DNA of 64,000 nt. Origin: an uncultured Gammaproteobacteria bacterium (GTDB lineage Bacteria; Pseudomonadota; Gammaproteobacteria; GCA-002705445; GCA-002716945). The stretch is taken from NCBI GenBank assembly GCA_902628335.1, contig CACOMO010000001.1:173313-237312 (forward strand), given 5' to 3'. Positions within the stretch are counted from its first letter, which is position 1; the number at the start of each line of letters is the position of its first letter. Both the position numbers and the translations under genes were made by a program. Shown piece after piece: positions 10,024 to 29,721 of the stretch. The notes under the pieces are model-generated. The model did not search any database, was not told the origin of the DNA, and saw nothing but the letters and a program-made list of their open reading frames with translations.

Positions 10024-10374
10024 TTAAAATATAGTAGCACCAAATATTTTTATTTCGTCTTCTTCAATACCAAGAACTAATCTACCTAAAAAATCTCCCC
10101 TAACAGTTTTACTTCTCTGTTTGTATAAGACAGTTACAAAATTATTTCGGCGTAAACATCCAAGATTAGTATACTCAGGTGATAAACTTGTAAGCATTTC
10201 ATTCCTTGACCATTGCTTACCGATCTCTACTTCATTGGAAGCTAACATCATTTCTTTCGAAAAATTTCTAGTGAAGGCATTGTAATCCTTCTTATTTGAA
10301 CTTTTGATGAGTTCATTCCAAAAAGGATTAGCAATCTCAATAATCTCCTTATCAGATTTTTTAATTAATTCCAT
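10024..10374 (-). CDS. Hypothetical protein, last gene of the apr operon (116 aa, soluble, no recognised motif)
   Basis: ATG 5 nt after the aprA stop on the same strand. No TM segment and no Cys cluster. Weak impression of an NTF2/SnoaL-like small alpha+beta protein only. Confidence 0.55.
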   Translation of the reverse strand: MELIKKSDKEIIEIANPFWNELIKSSNKKDYNAFTRNFSKEMMLASNEVEIGKQWSRNEMLTSLSPEYTNLGCLRRNNFVTVLYKQRSKTVRGDFLGRLVLGIEEDEIKIFGATIF

Positions 10375-10379
10375 TGAAT

Positions 10380-12242
10380 TTATGAAGCTTCAGATTCGTC
10401 TGTTTCTTCATCAATCAAATGGTATAAAGGAGCCTTTTCCATTTCAAATTTGCCTGTTTTAGGATCTCTTCTTGATACCGTCAAGCAATGCCAATTTTCA
10501 TCATCAAGTTTGAGAAAGTCACCTCTATAATAGTAACCAGGCCAACGAGTTTCCTCTCTAAATAGAGTGTGTTCTGTCACACATTGTGAAACTAGCGCTC
10601 TATGTTTTACTTCCCATGCCCGCATCAGCTGATGATAGTCTTCAGCGCCAATGTGCTCTAAATCCTCTTGAAGAATTCCCAAATCCTTTAAGGCTTTTTT
10701 GAGAGTATTACCGTTAGTCATATAATTAGTACCAATACCACCAACATAATCATCCATTATTTTCTGGAGCCTTTGTAATGCTTGTATTGGGAGTAGATAA
10801 CTGGGTGAAACTGTCCCAGCAGTAATTTCGTTTCTGCCAACTTTATAGTTTTCGAGAGGTTTGAAAATTTCATTTTTAAAATCGTCAATTTGCTTCTCTG
10901 TAACAGTTATCCCTTCAGCTTTTCCATCATTGATATATTGAACCGCAGACTTCGCACATATCCTACCCTCTGTAAAGGATCCAGATGAAAATATATGAGG
11001 CGTGCCACCTGCTGCATCGCCTGCACCAAATAAACCATCAACAGTCATCATTCTGTTGTAACCCCAGAAATATTCTGGAGGTGAAAGGTCTTCTGGTCCA
11101 CTCACCCATGCGCCTGAACATGTTGCATGAGAACCCATAACGTATGGCTCAGAAGTTGTAAGTTCTGGATTTTGATATTTAGGATCTATGTCTTGTGATG
11201 CCCAAACAACGGCTTGACCAACAGTCATACCTAAGAAGTTCTCCCAACCAATGACCTCAAGATGAGGGTCCTGGAAAGCTTCCATTGTTACCATATGAAT
11301 AGGTCCACCGCCAGCTGCAGTTTCTTGAATAAAGGCGTGATTCCTCAAACATGTTGGTCTAGGTACGTGGTCGATGTACTCACCAACAATTGCTTTAGTA
11401 TTGTCATACCATTTTTCTTCGTAATTTTCACCAGCTGCATTTTGAGTATAGGTTTTTAAATGGAGGAAATACGCTCCAACAGGACCGTAACCGTCCTTGA
11501 ACCTTGTGAGTACAATTCTATTTTCCATTTGTGTCATTTTGGCACCAACAGCAATTGGTAAAGCATAGGCTGACCCGTTGCTCCATGGGGCATACCATGT
11601 TCTTCCCATACCCTCACCAACAGCACGTGGTTTAAATAAATGAGAAGCTCCGCCAGCACAACATATCACGGTTTTAGATCTAAATACGTGATAATCACCT
11701 GTTCGCATATTAAAGCCAACGGCTCCTCCGATTCTATTATCTTGTGTTTCATCCATCAAAAGATGTGTGATCATTACTCTGTTGTATATTTTATCTGCAG
11801 ATTTTTTTGCTGCTTCCGCCACTATAGGCTTGTAGCTCTCGCCATGAATCATAATCTGCCACTTTCCCTCACGTTGGTAACGGCCAGTTTTTTCATTTCT
11901 CATTAGAGGAAGACCCCATTCTTCGAACATATGAACTGCAGAATCTACATGGCGTGCCGCATCATATGCCAGGTCTTCTCGAACCATTCCCATTAAATCA
12001 TTTCTAGCATATCTTACAAAATCCTCAGGTTGATTCTCATCCCAGCGCATCCCCATATAACAGTTTATCGCGTAAAGCCCTTGTGCCACAGCTCCACTCC
12101 TGTCAATATTTGCTTTCTCGGCACAAATGATTTTCATGTCACGACCCCAGTATCTTGATTCGAAAGTGGCACCAGTTCCAGCCATACCTCCACCAACAAC
12201 TAAAATATCGCAATCTTCATAAATAGTTTTTGTCTTCGCCAT
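10380..12242 (-). CDS. aprA: Adenylylsulfate (APS) reductase alpha subunit, FAD flavoprotein
   Basis: N-terminal FAD fold DILVVGGGMAGTGA. 620 aa with the AprA-typical length and sequence. Immediately follows aprB (TAATG overlap). Confidence 0.93.
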   Translation of the reverse strand: MAKTKTIYEDCDILVVGGGMAGTGATFESRYWGRDMKIICAEKANIDRSGAVAQGLYAINCYMGMRWDENQPEDFVRYARNDLMGMVREDLAYDAARHVDSAVHMFEEWGLPLMRNEKTGRYQREGKWQIMIHGESYKPIVAEAAKKSADKIYNRVMITHLLMDETQDNRIGGAVGFNMRTGDYHVFRSKTVICCAGGASHLFKPRAVGEGMGRTWYAPWSNGSAYALPIAVGAKMTQMENRIVLTRFKDGYGPVGAYFLHLKTYTQNAAGENYEEKWYDNTKAIVGEYIDHVPRPTCLRNHAFIQETAAGGGPIHMVTMEAFQDPHLEVIGWENFLGMTVGQAVVWASQDIDPKYQNPELTTSEPYVMGSHATCSGAWVSGPEDLSPPEYFWGYNRMMTVDGLFGAGDAAGGTPHIFSSGSFTEGRICAKSAVQYINDGKAEGITVTEKQIDDFKNEIFKPLENYKVGRNEITAGTVSPSYLLPIQALQRLQKIMDDYVGGIGTNYMTNGNTLKKALKDLGILQEDLEHIGAEDYHQLMRAWEVKHRALVSQCVTEHTLFREETRWPGYYYRGDFLKLDDENWHCLTVSRRDPKTGKFEMEKAPLYHLIDEETDESEAS

Positions 12243-12729: not shown

Positions 12730-13521
12730 TTAATAATTTTGTGGCTCTGAGCGTTTAATTCCCAAGCCATATTGTTTAGGTTTGTCTGCCGGTTCAGGCA
12801 GAAAATCTCTTGAGCCATCTGCCTCAGCTAGATGTTTTTGTATTGCTGCACCAGGTTTGTAAAACATGTGAGCGAATTTCGACCAGTACACTCCACCAAA
12901 TAATACTACGTTCGATAGAATGAATAAGAACAGGAATAATGAAGATAGTCCTGCAGAACCGATTGATTGGAAAAAGGACCACAATAACCCAAAAGTAGAT
13001 GTCGCCACTAATGCTAAAACAAAAAGATCTGCCATAACAACTCGATTCCATGGATTACCCTCTGATCTGACATCAACTCTCAGAAAGAACCAAAACCAAT
13101 ACCCACCAAGACAAGTCATTAATGCGCCAATATGCCATAAAACAGGATATAAAATCGGAGTTGCAGACGAAGTTGGATAACTAAAAATCATTATGACTGA
13201 CGTAACCCAAAAAATTATTGTCCCATACATTCCAAGTAAGTGCGCTACTCTTCTTTTAAACCCACAGAACTCTGCAGACGTAGCCACATCATTCGCAAGA
13301 GTTTTTGCAATTATGGCAACTTTCTCACCAGCTGGTACATGACGTGTAGCAGATTTTTTAAGTTTTTTTGAATTTTCAAAAAAGTACTTTGCGTTTTTTT
13401 TGTGAATCATGTCTAGTACAGTTCCCCCAACAGTAAGGGCGACCATTACAAGAACAAAGACTTGCATAGCAATGGGCGATATAAAACTAGAAAGTTCTAC
13501 GAATGGATTTATTGAAAACAT
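12730..13521 (-). CDS. aprM: APS reductase membrane anchor AprM (multi-helix integral membrane protein)
   Basis: 263 aa with about 5 hydrophobic helices. Sits between sat and aprB exactly as in sat-aprMBA loci of sulfur oxidisers. SD GGGAG lies upstream of the ATG. Confidence 0.7.
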   Translation of the reverse strand: MFSINPFVELSSFISPIAMQVFVLVMVALTVGGTVLDMIHKKNAKYFFENSKKLKKSATRHVPAGEKVAIIAKTLANDVATSAEFCGFKRRVAHLLGMYGTIIFWVTSVIMIFSYPTSSATPILYPVLWHIGALMTCLGGYWFWFFLRVDVRSEGNPWNRVVMADLFVLALVATSTFGLLWSFFQSIGSAGLSSLFLFLFILSNVVLFGGVYWSKFAHMFYKPGAAIQKHLAEADGSRDFLPEPADKPKQYGLGIKRSEPQNY

Positions 13522-13693: not shown

Positions 13694-14890
13694 CTATTTG
13701 GAACGATAATAACTCTTGAGAATATCAGCTACTTCTTTCCTAGCAAATTCTGGAGGTAAGTCTTCGTTATTTGACAGCATTTCCCTAACTTTTGTGCCGG
13801 AAAGGAGAACGAAATCGTCTTTAGTATGATCGCTTACATCTCTCATCATGACCACTTTATCTAATTTTTTAGAATAAGCGGTATGATCAGCCGCAAAGAT
13901 TTGTATTTTTAGCGACTCTTCTACAATACTTTTCTGAAATATTTCCTGAGCTGCAAAGGGGTCGTAATAGTCACCTACTCCAGCATGATCTCTTCCCACA
14001 ATTAAATGAGAGCATCCACAATTTTGTCTAAAAGTTGCGTGAAGTAGAGCTTCTCTGGGTCCTGCATACATCATGTCAAAACCAAAACCTGATATTAATG
14101 CTGTATTGGGTTGAAAATATAAATCCACCATTTTTCTTATTGCTGCATCTCTAACATCGCCGGGTATATCTCCTTCCTTAAGCTTTCCGAGAGTCATGTG
14201 TATCAAAACTCCATCTGCATTAAGAGATTCCAAAGCCATTTTACAGAGTTCCTCGTGAGCTCTGTGCATCGGATTCCTTGTTTGAAACGCTACTACTTTA
14301 CGCCATTTTAATGAGTCAAGCTTATTTCTGATCCCCATAGCAGTGTCAAACGTATTTGGGAATTCTTCAGGAAAGTAACTATAGTTTAATACTTTGATTG
14401 GGCCTGCAATTAATGTAGATCCTTGATTTATAAAATTCTTAACACCAGGGTGATTAGAATCTTTAGTCCCAAAAACATTCTCTAATATAACCTCTAACTC
14501 ATGAGCAGATAAAGTGTCAACAGAGGTTATAGTCTGAATTGCGATTGGGCGTTCATCAGAGTAATTTGGATCTAAAAGTACCAACTCTTCGCCTTTGCTA
14601 AATTCTGTAGATTTCAAGGTTGATAAATTAATAATTGGAACTGGCCAAAAAAGTCCCTCTTTAGTTTGCATTTGTAATGCTACATTCAAAGCGTCTTCTT
14701 TATCCATAAAGCCATCCAAAGGAGTAAAATAACCTGCTCCTAACATCACAACATTGGCCGCAGCAGATGAATTCAGCTTTTGACGCTTAGAAAGCGAAGC
14801 TGCCTCGATAATTTCCCTTAATCTCTCTTTATCGCTAATTATTAGGGGTTTAAGTTCTTTTGAACCATGTGGCTCTATCAAATTTGTCAT
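13694..14890 (-). CDS. sat: Sulfate adenylyltransferase (ATP sulfurylase)
   Basis: Motifs VAFQTRNPMHRAHEEL and LIVGRDHAGVG. Start trimmed from the ORF-track 14938 to the ATG at 14890 (MTNLIEPHG...), which matches the usual Sat N-terminus. Confidence 0.92.
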   Translation of the reverse strand: MTNLIEPHGSKELKPLIISDKERLREIIEAASLSKRQKLNSSAAANVVMLGAGYFTPLDGFMDKEDALNVALQMQTKEGLFWPVPIINLSTLKSTEFSKGEELVLLDPNYSDERPIAIQTITSVDTLSAHELEVILENVFGTKDSNHPGVKNFINQGSTLIAGPIKVLNYSYFPEEFPNTFDTAMGIRNKLDSLKWRKVVAFQTRNPMHRAHEELCKMALESLNADGVLIHMTLGKLKEGDIPGDVRDAAIRKMVDLYFQPNTALISGFGFDMMYAGPREALLHATFRQNCGCSHLIVGRDHAGVGDYYDPFAAQEIFQKSIVEESLKIQIFAADHTAYSKKLDKVVMMRDVSDHTKDDFVLLSGTKVREMLSNNEDLPPEFARKEVADILKSYYRSK

Positions 14891-15071
14891 AAAAAATCCA
14901 TAAATTTTTGTTAATATAGCAATTGATGATAGCGACAAGTAATAATATAATCAACGTTGCTGAAAAATCAAAGTAAGTTTTATATTACTAAAATTGTGGT
15001 ATTTTTTACAAGTGATTTTGTTAGTATTTGAAGATTAAAAAAATTGTAAAACGTTATAATAATTAGATAGT

Positions 15072-16991
15072 ATGGAAGAAATTTTAGAAATAAGGGATGG
15101 GTGTAAGACACCATCACAATTACTTAAAAGTAAAGCCTTCGCTCAGTATCTCGAAATTTACAAACGAGAATTCATCAAAGAGCTCAAAAAAAGAGAGGAT
15201 AAAGATCTCAAAGAAGAGGTGCTGCACAAGATACACTATATCGAAAACATAGATCCTAAAGTATTTGTATCTATCTTGGAGGGAGAAACTCCTTTCTCTG
15301 GAGATGAATTGAGAGATTACAAAGATAGTGTTCAATTCCTCGATGGTGCATTTCATCATTACAGGACAAAATCATACACTCGGTTGGTACGACTACACAA
15401 TGAAATCATAGATAATTCACTTAATGCTGAAGAAATTAAAGACAAAGTTTCTGCTAAGGCAGATAAGCTATCTGATCTGATATTGGAAACTCGAAGAATA
15501 CTACTTGTCAAAGTTGGTCTTGGCGCGGGGGTCAGAAGAACCCAAGGTCTAGAGTGTCATCCAAATGTTGCAGTTGGTGAGGTTTCAGGACATTTCGTAA
15601 AATTACCATCAGAGTACTCGAATCTAAATCAAGTGCCTGTGACCACAGCTGCAGACATGAGGACAGGAGTCTACTACACGACTCATGCAAATAAACGTGC
15701 TTTCCCTTTCTTTGCTCTTGATCATAACCCAATAAAAAATGATCTGTTCAATCCAGATGAATATGTAGCAATTCCTTTTGAGATAGGTGCATGGAACATT
15801 CTATGTTACATACATAAAACCCGTGGATATATAGAGATCGAGCCAGGTTTGTTAAACTTATTTCCATTTTCAAAAGTAGAGAACATTACAACTAAACAAC
15901 CAGATGGAATATTCGTATTAGGGTGCCCAAATTCAGATATGAAAGACTTAGGATATTATCATGACGAAGAGAATGACATTTTAGTCGGTTTAATACCTGG
16001 ACTCGATGAATGTCAATATTTTGGGTACGGTAAAAAACCAATGTTAACACTTCATAATGTATTGTGTATTCTCAAGGGAGATTTGCCTCTTCACTGTGGA
16101 GCAACGAGATATGTAGTTAGGTTTGATGAGAAAACTGGTGACCCATATATTTTTGACTCCTTAATCAAAGCAGATGATATGGGACGAGCAATATTAGAAA
16201 AAAATGGTAGCGATGAAGAAGTGCCCTATTTTTACGGAACAGAAACTGGCGCATTTGCCTGTCTAGATGGTTTCAGCGAATATGCAAAAATGCAAATGGA
16301 AGGAAGAGAAATTGGATATAACAAACACTCTGGAACGAATGCTCGTCAAATTGTCCCTGTGACTGAGTATTCTGAAATCTCTACAGGTTCAGAATTAGAT
16401 ATACTCTTATACCTAAATAACTACGATATCATTCCAAAAGGTGAGAGTTGTATGAAAGCAGATATGAAACCAGATGATGCTTTAGAACATTTCAGAAGCG
16501 GTGCAAGAGTTGCAGCTGGTAGTACACAAACACATCGAGGAGAAGTTGAAATTAGCTACTGGGCAAACCCATTCCCTTTACTGAAAGATAAAGAATGGAA
16601 AGTCTTGCCAGAGCACACAGATATATGTGAGAAGTTTGAAAAAATAGAAAAGAGATTTTTTGATAATTTCAAAAAAAGAGTCAAATCAGGAAAAATGAAA
16701 ATAGGTGTTGCTCATAGCATGTTGATGGCTGGTGTTTACAAAGAAAGCACTGACGATGTTTTAACTAAAGGTGGTTTTACCGAAAGAGATCTTGTTGAAC
16801 ATCATGGTCCTGAGCGCGCGGCACATGACATGATTGATCTGATTAAACAAACAGCAATCGAAAAAAGAAAAAGGCTTGGGGGTAATACTAAAGAAGTAGA
16901 TGTTACCATTGCTACTATCGGTGATAGTAGAACAGGGAAATCTGAAATGGCGGAAAAGATGGAAGGTGTTCTGAGCATGAGTTTAATTTAA
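15072..16991 (+). CDS. Uncharacterised PEPCK/HprK-superfamily protein (639 aa) with C-terminal P-loop
   Basis: aa 317-345 FGYGKKPMLTLHNVLCILKGDLPLHCGAT resembles the ATP-PEPCK active-site segment. aa 609-627 VDVTIATIGDSRTGKSEMA resembles the HprK/P Walker A. The rest is unrecognised. Divergent from sat. Confidence 0.6.
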   Translation: MEEILEIRDGCKTPSQLLKSKAFAQYLEIYKREFIKELKKREDKDLKEEVLHKIHYIENIDPKVFVSILEGETPFSGDELRDYKDSVQFLDGAFHHYRTKSYTRLVRLHNEIIDNSLNAEEIKDKVSAKADKLSDLILETRRILLVKVGLGAGVRRTQGLECHPNVAVGEVSGHFVKLPSEYSNLNQVPVTTAADMRTGVYYTTHANKRAFPFFALDHNPIKNDLFNPDEYVAIPFEIGAWNILCYIHKTRGYIEIEPGLLNLFPFSKVENITTKQPDGIFVLGCPNSDMKDLGYYHDEENDILVGLIPGLDECQYFGYGKKPMLTLHNVLCILKGDLPLHCGATRYVVRFDEKTGDPYIFDSLIKADDMGRAILEKNGSDEEVPYFYGTETGAFACLDGFSEYAKMQMEGREIGYNKHSGTNARQIVPVTEYSEISTGSELDILLYLNNYDIIPKGESCMKADMKPDDALEHFRSGARVAAGSTQTHRGEVEISYWANPFPLLKDKEWKVLPEHTDICEKFEKIEKRFFDNFKKRVKSGKMKIGVAHSMLMAGVYKESTDDVLTKGGFTERDLVEHHGPERAAHDMIDLIKQTAIEKRKRLGGNTKEVDVTIATIGDSRTGKSEMAEKMEGVLSMSLI

Positions 16992-28539: not shown

Positions 28540-29721
28540 TTAAACTACTTTATAGCCTTTAAGACTATTCGAAAACACTTTTAAAGAATCAATACCTTTG
28601 CTACTAGCTTCTTCACACCACTCATTTAGTATACGTATAAAGTTTTCATGCTTGATGTTTCTACTATACAAAATGTCATATAGTTTATTTTTCAGATCAT
28701 AGACTGTCTCGAGAGTAGTGCACTCTTTAAAAATTAACTTGAGTCTATCTATATCATTATCAGATATTCTATTAGGTTGTCTTGAAAGAGTATCAGTAGA
28801 CATCTTTAGCATCCTCTTAATATCATACTTCGCATTTTTAATTTCAACTTTTAAAATAGGCTTTAACACCTCAGAAGTGTAGTTAGTGATAACGGTTAGT
28901 TTCGATTTAAGTAAATCATAGCCAACTTTCGAATCTAAATCTAAATTACTGCTACCTACAATAGTTTTCACAGCAAGTCTTTTCACTTTTACTTGACCAA
29001 AGAATGAAAATATTTTTATATACATCCAGCCTATGTCAAATTCCCAAGGCTTGAGTGAAAATTTTGCGGCAGTTGGAAATGCATGGTGATTATTGTGGAG
29101 TTCTTCACCACCGATGATAATTCCGACAGGTCCTAAGTTTGTTGAATCGTCACTTGTGTTGAAATTACGATAACCCCAATAGTGTCCTGCTCCATTAATA
29201 CCGCCTGCAGCGAAAATTGGTGTCCACATCATTTGAATAGACCAGATTATTATCCCTACCACACCAAATAAAAGAATGTTAAGAATGAATAATAATAAAA
29301 TTCCCAAATTATTCTTACCTGTATAAACGTGCTGCTCTATCCAGTCATTTGGACAATTTTGAGAGTATTTTTGGATAGTCTCGCTGTTACCCTTCTCCTC
29401 ATGGTATAAATCAGCACCTCTCAAAAGCACATGTCCTATGCCATAGTGTGCTGGGCTATGAGGGTCATCTGCGGTTTCTACCTTTGCATGGTGTTTTCTG
29501 TGTATGGCGACCCAATCAGCAGTTCTCATAGATGTTGTTAGCCATAACCAAAATCGGAAAAAATGAGCCAGAATAGGCTTAATTTCAATTGCTGAATGGC
29601 ATATGCCGCGATGTAAATAGAGTGTAATTGCTACTATTGTTATATGAGTGACAATAAGGGTGTAAATTACATATTCCACCCATGTAAATTGTATTAGTCC
29701 GTTTGTAATTAAATCCATCAT
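28540..29721 (-). CDS. Membrane fatty-acid (acyl-CoA/acyl-lipid delta-9-type) desaturase, DesA-like
   Basis: Three histidine boxes (HRGICH, HRKHH, HNNHH) and N-terminal TM helices. At 393 aa it has a C-terminal extension like gammaproteobacterial DesA. Confidence 0.85.
   Translation of the reverse strand: MMDLITNGLIQFTWVEYVIYTLIVTHITIVAITLYLHRGICHSAIEIKPILAHFFRFWLWLTTSMRTADWVAIHRKHHAKVETADDPHSPAHYGIGHVLLRGADLYHEEKGNSETIQKYSQNCPNDWIEQHVYTGKNNLGILLLFILNILLFGVVGIIIWSIQMMWTPIFAAGGINGAGHYWGYRNFNTSDDSTNLGPVGIIIGGEELHNNHHAFPTAAKFSLKPWEFDIGWMYIKIFSFFGQVKVKRLAVKTIVGSSNLDLDSKVGYDLLKSKLTVITNYTSEVLKPILKVEIKNAKYDIKRMLKMSTDTLSRQPNRISDNDIDRLKLIFKECTTLETVYDLKNKLYDILYSRNIKHENFIRILNEWCEEASSKGIDSLKVFSNSLKGYKVV

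Follow-up and report, generated by a model that had tools for sequence, protein, structure and literature searches.

Locus of the sat-adjacent gene

The gene considered here encodes a protein of 639 amino acids (aa) and lies on the plus strand of a 64,000-nucleotide (nt) stretch of DNA from an uncultured Gammaproteobacteria bacterium (contig CACOMO010000001.1 of assembly GCA_902628335.1, positions 173,313 to 237,312; the whole stretch is referred to as the window, and all positions follow its numbering). Judged from its sequence, the product of this open reading frame (ORF; 15072..16991), hereafter the target, has the fold and the type of active site of a phosphoenolpyruvate carboxykinase (PEPCK) and is far from an ordinary pckA orthologue, and its phosphate-binding Walker A motif (P-loop) appears to have been moved from the centre of the chain to the C-terminus. 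The identical protein is already deposited in public collections, as P0411. An initial annotation, made from the sequence alone, had placed the gene head-to-head with sat-aprMBA across a shared upstream region of 181 nt, and both points hold, as the target is encoded on the plus strand and the four operon genes are all on the minus strand, and the ATG of sat at 14890 leaves a spacer of exactly that length. The locus comprises the following features:

15072..16991, plus strand: target coding sequence, ATG start, 639 aa, PEPCK-fold protein of the permuted subfamily (AlphaFold2 model, Foldseek)
14891..15071: divergent intergenic region from sat to the target, 181 nt
14923..14951, plus strand: candidate sigma-70-like promoter, TTGATG-17-TATAAT, toward the target (a match to the consensus only)
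13694..14890, minus strand: sat, ATP sulfurylase, 398 aa from the ATG at 14890 (PUA_2 and ATP-sulfurylase domains)
12730..13521, minus strand: aprM-like gene, membrane protein of 263 aa with about five hydrophobic segments and without a Pfam match (hydropathy; fits the description of AprM in PMC3779200)
12242..12718, minus strand: aprB (APS-reductase_C and Fer4 domain matches)
10380..12242, minus strand: aprA

A 414-aa ORF with a TTG start in the output of the ORF finder is an upstream extension of sat. The gene order sat-aprM-aprB-aprA on one strand is shared with the sat-aprMBA operon of Allochromatium vinosum (Alvin_1118-1121), which forms a single transcription unit (PMC3779200), whereas the target gene stands outside such a unit, is divergent from it and is linked to the operon in one clade only. 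On its 3' side, trxA and rho follow on the same strand, and then purD and purH on the opposite strand, convergent with rho.

Family membership and PEPCK fold

Searches with the target alone recover hardly any of its relationships. Among the Pfam profiles, PEPCK_ATP (PF01293) stays below threshold, with 10.8 bits (E=0.2) against a cut-off of 26.5 and over aa 314-357 only, and neither NCBIfam, including TIGR00224, nor the PDB sequences yield a match, which agrees with the suspicion of the initial annotation that this is not an ordinary pckA product. The ~394 close homologues (roughly 400 clusters) come from marine metagenomes, metagenome-assembled genomes and single-amplified genomes (SAGs; Tara, GORG SAGs, Saanich Inlet) and carry no functional name; the few that are named at all are called 'hypothetical protein', a precomputed Pfam domain is present in one truncated match only, and a profile made from the orthologues alone finds nothing among the PDB sequences.

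An exhaustive profile search leads beyond these orthologues to a larger set of 550-600-aa proteins that cover aa ~10-512 of the target. This canonical family (profile A2; ~580 aa) counts >7,300 clusters from Clostridium, Fusobacterium, KSB1, Bipolaricaulota and others, many members of which are reached by hmmsearch at E-values of 1e-54 to 1e-15. Profile-to-profile comparison by hhalign of the subfamily of the target (A1, permuted) with A2 gives a probability of 100% (E=3.1e-64) over 545 columns, from aa 9 to ~600, at a pairwise identity of 21-28%, so that the homology extends over nearly the whole length and includes an N-terminal helical region as well as all core motifs. Some sources label the canonical proteins 'phosphoenolpyruvate carboxykinase' or 'putative P-loop kinase or ATPase distantly related to phosphoenolpyruvate carboxykinase'. 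Their members repeatedly give sub-threshold matches to PEPCK hidden Markov models (HMMs) in the same profile region (Pfam E=8.6e-6; NCBIfam PRK09344.1-3, E~1e-6), and the A2 profile finds PEPCK among the PDB sequences merely at E=0.23 and HprK at 0.67.

Structure prediction is more informative. A first AlphaFold2 (AF2) model, built from 19 close orthologues, has a predicted local distance difference test score (pLDDT) of 62.5 and retrieves nothing with Foldseek; the model from a 68-sequence alignment that includes remote homologues reaches a pLDDT of 91 and a predicted template modelling (TM) score of 0.90. With this second model, Foldseek returns 46 PDB matches at E<=1e-3, all of which are ATP- or GTP-dependent PEPCKs, headed by E. 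coli PckA (6v2n; E=2.1e-12, probability 1.0, 544 columns, TM-scores 0.34/0.41) and with the GTP-dependent enzymes at ~1e-8; no HprK/P structure is among them. At the level of profiles, hhalign aligns aa 260-503 of the target with residues 148-411 of E. coli PckA (probability 94%, E=1.3e-7). Membership of the PEPCK structural superfamily, which the initial annotation had proposed, is thus borne out by both approaches. Along the chain, the relevant features are arranged as follows:

15111..15512, plus strand: N-terminal helical region, aa 14-147, common to the canonical clostridial family and without a sequence-level counterpart in PckA
15849..16580, plus strand: PEPCK-like catalytic core, aa 260-503, corresponding to PckA 148-411 (hhalign, values as above)
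16017..16103, plus strand: motif Y316-FGYG-K321-K322...H341-C-G-A344, corresponding to PckA Y207, K212, K213 and H232 (hhalign, ungapped alignment)
16122..16145, plus strand: apparently vacated Walker A site, aa 351-358, FDEKTGDP; ~22 further residues, with GDSGAGKSE and a helix, are present here in the canonical family (PxH-to-DDM 28 aa in the target vs 51 aa)
16164..16187, plus strand: IKADDMGR, aa 365-372, corresponding to PckA 266-IGDDEHGW with the metal-binding D268/D269 (hhalign)
16338..16358, plus strand: NARQIVP, aa 423-429, corresponding to PckA 331-NTRVSYP with the substrate-binding Arg333 (hhalign)
16893..16973, plus strand: C-terminal beta-strand, Walker A (G617-DSRTGKS-E625) and helix, aa 608-634, absent from the canonical C-terminus

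In the hhalign alignment, Y207 of PckA corresponds to Y316 of the target, K212/K213 to K321/K322, H232 to H341, D268/D269 to D368/D369 and R333 to R425. Among the 68 sequences, Y316, K321 and D369 are invariant, and K322, H341 and D368 are conserved in at least 90%; R425 likewise reaches at least this level. The first of these blocks had been noticed in the initial annotation as a gap-free match to the PckA active site; the resemblance is real, and ungapped with the true E. coli PckA 207-236, although the string given at the time omitted Y316 and without this residue was not gap-free. When PckA 207-236 is set against target residues 316-345 (YFGYGKKPMLTLHNVLCILKGDLPLHCGAT), 13 of the 30 positions are identical and the BLOSUM62 score is 57, which makes this pair the top ungapped 30-mer of the entire comparison; 300 shuffles gave a mean of 29.9, a standard deviation of 4.7 and a maximum of 51. 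The same annotation had regarded aa 380-600 as unrecognisable, which does not stand, as aa 380-510 bear diverged forms of the PEPCK motifs NTRxxYP, FLSG, AGTExG and FSACFG: beyond NARQIVP, FLSG appears as FRSG (from aa 474), AGTERG as AGSTQTHRG (aa 482) and FSACFGA as SYWANPF (aa 495).

The target therefore shares with E. coli PckA the two-domain fold, the equivalents of Y207, K212/K213, H232, D268/D269 and R333, and a near-identical spacing of the motifs. It differs in that the identity is 13-16% and the curated HMM cut-offs are not reached, in the extra N-terminal helical region and, above all, in the kinase-1a P-loop (PckA 248-GLSGTGKT-255), which is gone from its place, while a Walker A motif is found at the C-terminus.

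The relocated P-loop

Canonical members follow the order LPxHGA-(14 aa)-NvviiGDSGAGKSEtlEAfr-(10 aa)-iIFDDMG, which matches the succession of strand, Walker A, helix and Asp-Asp strand in PckA, and they end at a GPxxAA helix. We take HprK/P to have the same order. In the target, the corresponding central stretch (LPLHCGATRYVVRFDEKTGDPYIFDSLIKADDMG) is 22-23 residues shorter and is devoid of a Walker A motif, whereas the C-terminus (VDVTIATIGDSRTGKSEMAEKMEGVL) runs about 38 residues past the end of the canonical family and carries GDSRTGKSE. The H341-to-D368 interval of 27 aa is without a Walker A, and the sole GxxxxGK[ST] of the protein is at aa 617-624. The C-terminal Walker A segment reported by the initial annotation (VDVTIATIGDSRTGKSEMA, aa 608-626) is indeed present, and its G617-E625 (GDSRTGKSE) does not vary among 19 orthologues that span 59-96% identity.

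The two positions of the motif exclude each other. Among the full-length matches that keep the other family motifs, each protein has either the 51-aa spacing with a central GDSGAGKS or the 28-aa spacing with a C-terminal GDSR[TA]GKS, and none has both or neither. An HMM of the canonical central element matches all 19 permuted proteins, at the C-terminus only and with 11-22 bits, as compared with a maximum of 4.1 bits in 950 shuffled sequences. Five or six deeper clusters at the 50%-identity level (P0121-P0126), which are 37-42% identical, likewise have the permuted form. On sequence evidence, the Walker A and the helix that follows it are deleted from the centre, and an equivalent strand-GDSRTGKSE-helix element is appended at the C-terminus. 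The AF2 model shows a paired beta-strand at aa 608-616 and a helix at aa 623-633 (pLDDT 86-95), from which we infer docking of the C-terminal element at the ancestral site, either by bending back onto its own chain or by extending into a neighbouring subunit.

Conceivably, the protein became inactive when the central Walker A was lost, so that the target would be a catalytically dead pseudoenzyme or a scaffold and the C-terminal motif an unrelated nucleotide-binding tail. The vacant P-loop position itself fits this view, as do two results on the C-terminal segment: the 37-mer alone retrieves only generic ABC-type P-loops from the PDB, weakly (E=0.19), and an in-silico de-permuted chimera, in which the segment is put back into the centre, raises the PEPCK_ATP score from 10.9 to 14.2 bits, a gain of only ~3 bits, which together with the failure of a scrambled insert to match at all is weak support for relocation. 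However, the central element is lost exactly where the C-terminal one is gained, and permuted members down to 37% identity show little or no variation at the metal, substrate and P-loop positions, as purifying selection on an active site would give. We therefore regard a dead enzyme as very unlikely.

The C-terminal motif also lends itself to another reading, in which the target is an HprK/P-like regulatory kinase/phosphorylase that acts on a protein substrate with ATP or pyrophosphate (PPi) as donor. HprK/P and PEPCK form one structural superfamily, and a Walker A of the type GDSG[AT]GKSE followed by Asp-Asp agrees with what we take to be the HprK/P signature (GDSGxGKSE ...ADD). A canonical relative, P0160, gives faint matches to Hpr_kinase_C and TIGR00679 (E 0.075-0.095), and a response regulator and histidine kinase pair is found 3' of the genes of one orthologue clade (clade C, described below). 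On the other hand, the target itself has no HMM match to PF07475 or TIGR00679, none of the 46 structural matches is an HprK/P, and the Foldseek alignment spans both PEPCK domains. The residues that bind small molecules (equivalents of Y207 and R333) and the FLSG, AGTExG and FSACFG motifs are conserved, albeit diverged in form. Size and architecture differ as well, since the 639 aa of the target are twice the ~310 aa that we assume for HprK/P, with PEPCK-type N- and C-terminal domains and a P-loop at the C-terminus. A protein kinase of this kind is thus quite unlikely, and what the initial annotation had seen as an HprK/P-like Walker A is present as a motif, but corresponds to the central GDSGAGKSE element of the family in a new position.

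The circularly permuted P-loop GTPases YjeQ/RsgA and YlqF/RbgA, in which the whole G domain is truly permuted, offer an analogy, since there too the order of the nucleotide-binding motifs is changed and the three-dimensional site is presumably kept. The target differs from them in that a single strand-loop-helix element has apparently been transposed to the C-terminus and the remaining order is kept. In the literature searched, no description of P-loop relocation or permutation in PEPCK-like kinases was found, nor anything relevant to the family or to a sat-adjacent PEPCK-like gene.

One of the deeper permuted sequences, P0121, from an ENA contig of 2.5 kb, has tryptophan at every position where the family has an invariant glycine (WDSRTWKSE, YFWYLKKP, EIWAFACLDD). 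From its sequence it looks like the product of an organism that reads UGA as glycine (genetic code 25, of the Gracilibacteria/Absconditabacteria type) to which table 4 was applied in translation, in which case candidate-phyla bacteria would also have members of the permuted subfamily.

Linkage to sat-aprMBA and predicted function

The neighbourhoods of 91 orthologue loci were searched with Sat, AprM, AprB and AprA of the window, and genes within 10 kb were counted as linked. In clade A, in which the orthologues are at least 73% identical to the target and which covers about 25 GTDB species of low-GC marine Gammaproteobacteria, sat-aprMBA is divergently adjacent in all 30 loci. Two arrangements occur in this clade, which differ in the position of the trx-rho block: trxA-rho is located 3' of the target gene in the window and in L007-L015, L020, L022 and L024-L029, and beyond aprA, the gene orf116 and a Metallophos_2 gene in L004-L006, L016, L019, L021, L023 and L030-L032. 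The breakpoint of the rearrangement coincides with the 3' end of the target gene, and the junction with sat is intact in both arrangements.

Outside clade A, the picture is different: none of the 61 loci of clades B and C has sat or apr within 10 kb. Clade B (66-71% identity; labelled Alphaproteobacteria or Rickettsiales; L003, L010, L034-L054) has other conserved neighbours, and such identity across genomes labelled 'alpha' and 'gamma' suggests lateral transfer or mislabelled taxonomy. Clade C (55-58% identity) includes Thiotrichales, 'Piscirickettsiaceae', Ca. Porisulfidus and others. The distant permuted members have no sat or apr neighbour in the three cases with readable flanks, the fourth contig consisting of the gene alone; one gene follows that of glyceraldehyde-3-phosphate dehydrogenase (GAPDH, gap) and one that of alanine racemase (alr), both with a convergent recJ downstream, and the contig of the third carries ribosomal and pilin genes and no sulfur genes. 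Across 81 loci of the canonical family there is no conserved partner, as no neighbour exceeds 12 of the 81 and those come from close relatives, and linkage to sat or apr is absent.

In the spacer, the candidate promoter TTGATG-17-TATAAT is kept in most clade A loci and is diverged in a sub-group (L022, L027-L029). Promoter-like sites on the minus strand overlap the same -10 hexamer (14946-14951), which may permit co-regulation with sat or competition with it, judging from the arrangement of the sites. Directly after the -10 hexamer, a perfect 8-bp palindrome (CAACGTTG, 14952-14959), which the majority of clade A loci share and some lack, could be an operator. No counterpart of the clade A promoter block was found in front of the orthologues of clades B and C, and neither a riboswitch nor another RNA element was found upstream of the target or of a clostridial homologue.

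These observations bear on the idea, contained in the initial annotation, that the gene serves the adenosine 5'-phosphosulfate (APS) pathway. In this scenario the target would be a Sat-co-regulated phosphotransferase of the PEPCK/HprK superfamily that makes or recycles PPi or adenylates, for example by converting phosphoenolpyruvate (PEP) and inorganic phosphate (Pi), with or without CO2, to oxaloacetate (OAA) and PPi (PEP + Pi (+CO2) -> OAA + PPi), and thereby feeds Sat in the oxidative direction. The pairing with sat-aprMBA in every clade A locus, its retention across the trx-rho rearrangement and the overlapping -10 region of the shared promoter block in most of these loci speak for it. HprK/P P-loops bind PPi, and PPi-dependent PEPCKs exist. 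The lineage names in clade C, Thiotrichales and Ca. Porisulfidus, suggest sulfur oxidation, the latter serving as an outgroup of SUP05 (PMC9123188). The scenario is opposed by the missing linkage in the 61 clade B and C loci and in the distant permuted members, by the abundance of the parent family in fermentative Clostridia and Fusobacteria, by the position of the gene outside the operon and divergent from it, and by the lack of any residue-level feature that favours PPi over a nucleoside triphosphate; an accessory role in the APS pathway is accordingly considered unlikely. The functional link to Sat and AprBA retains its basis in clade A and finds none in clades B and C or in the distant permuted and canonical relatives, hence it is weak and depends on clade-specific synteny; the orthologues are widespread and, clade A aside, not linked to sat or apr within 10 kb, which comes close to contradicting it.

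Several further observations were made on the same loci. The sat gene of the window was considered as a xenologue, since it is 65-73% identical to its relatives as compared with 85-97% for AprA, and this was rejected because Sat evolves fast throughout the clade: within the same operon, pairwise identities in clade A are 64-89% for Sat and 82-98% for AprA (window, L004-L038). A 116-aa ORF without a Pfam match directly follows aprA (10024-10374, minus strand); it is present in every clade A locus that reaches that far, with 55-82% identity, and may belong to the apr operon as a gene so far overlooked. On its 3' side there is a Metallophos_2 gene in the relatives and a convergent accC in the window. 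In 14 clade B loci, the orthologue is preceded at a distance of ~90 nt by a ~150-aa ORF of the same strand that has no Pfam match. In P0238, a homologue of 646 aa, part of the canonical kinase core, with the Walker A GDTATGKS at aa 58, stands at the N-terminus, and an entire PurC/SAICAR synthetase domain (Pfam E=1e-25, NCBIfam E=1.5e-48) comes after it; this could be a real fusion or a mis-call, and that purD and purH are found near the target gene as well is probably a coincidence. Elsewhere in the window, a single 393-aa ORF (28540-29721, minus strand) matches both FA_desaturase (aa 13-219) and the transposase DDE_Tnp_ISL3 (aa 279-390), a combination that is also called in the related genomes L004-L006 and is thus no local artefact.

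Our preferred reading, held with middling confidence, is that the target is an active, soluble, two-metal PEPCK-type phosphotransferase that takes its P-loop from the C-terminus, acts on a small carboxylate or enolate substrate and has a role in central carbon metabolism, not one dedicated to the APS pathway. The C-terminal element would supply the phosphate-binding K623/S624, in cis or in trans, and these residues would complete an otherwise intact two-metal site made up of Y316, K321, K322, H341, D368, D369 and R425. Activity is likely because variation is absent or minimal in the P-loop and at every mapped catalytic position. The product is predicted to be a nucleotide-dependent phosphotransferase, and OAA/PEP-type chemistry, which would mean a central-carbon function, is the leading candidate because the equivalents of Y207, R333 and the metal ligands are retained. 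A role specific to sulfur metabolism is not favoured because 61 orthologue loci and the distant members are unlinked to sat or apr and no partner is conserved throughout the canonical family; the divergent pairing with sat-aprMBA would then be clade-specific synteny, with co-regulation possible through the overlapping divergent promoters. In this proposal, fold, family membership, motif mapping, Walker A relocation and synteny are established at the level of sequence, and we infer the docking of the tail, catalytic competence, substrate and co-regulation.

Some of the evidence weighs against this proposal. Global TM-scores to PEPCKs are low (0.34-0.44) and identities are 10-16%, so the substrate may differ from OAA or PEP. 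The hhalign alignment covers PckA 148-411, which leaves R65 and the adenine-binding region of R449/T455 outside the mapped span, and taking R209 in NKRxF as the equivalent of R65 is a guess. Docking of the tail at the ancestral site is argued from the high pLDDT and the paired strand and from nothing else, and the GAPDH neighbour, which would suit central carbon metabolism, is a single case. Finally, a sat-target junction that is present in 30 of 30 loci and survives the relocation of trx-rho is hardly trivial, and a functional link may yet underlie it.

The boldest combination would have the C-terminal Walker A functional, as the first described P-loop transposition in the PEPCK/HprK superfamily, the gene co-regulated with Sat through the overlapping divergent promoters in the abundant low-GC marine clade, and a high-energy carbon compound such as PEP converted to PPi or ATP equivalents for the reaction APS + PPi -> ATP + sulfate. 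We see this as a long shot; if true, the conversion of PEP to PPi would explain the source of the PPi that Sat uses during sulfite oxidation. As it is, the clade-specific linkage to sat tempers the hypothesis of a PPi supply for the dissimilatory ATP sulfurylase, and unless that hypothesis is borne out, the protein is of greater interest for protein evolution than for sulfur metabolism. The strict alternation between a central and a C-terminal P-loop amounts to a natural experiment on moving an essential phosphate-binding element within a fold. The family link also reaches more than 7,000 clusters, in which the 'PEPCK' labels are unsupported as they stand, every member tested falling below the curated PEPCK cut-offs. 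For the widespread marine bacteria that carry it, a gene so far listed as 'hypothetical' and without a Pfam domain gains a name and an active-site model.

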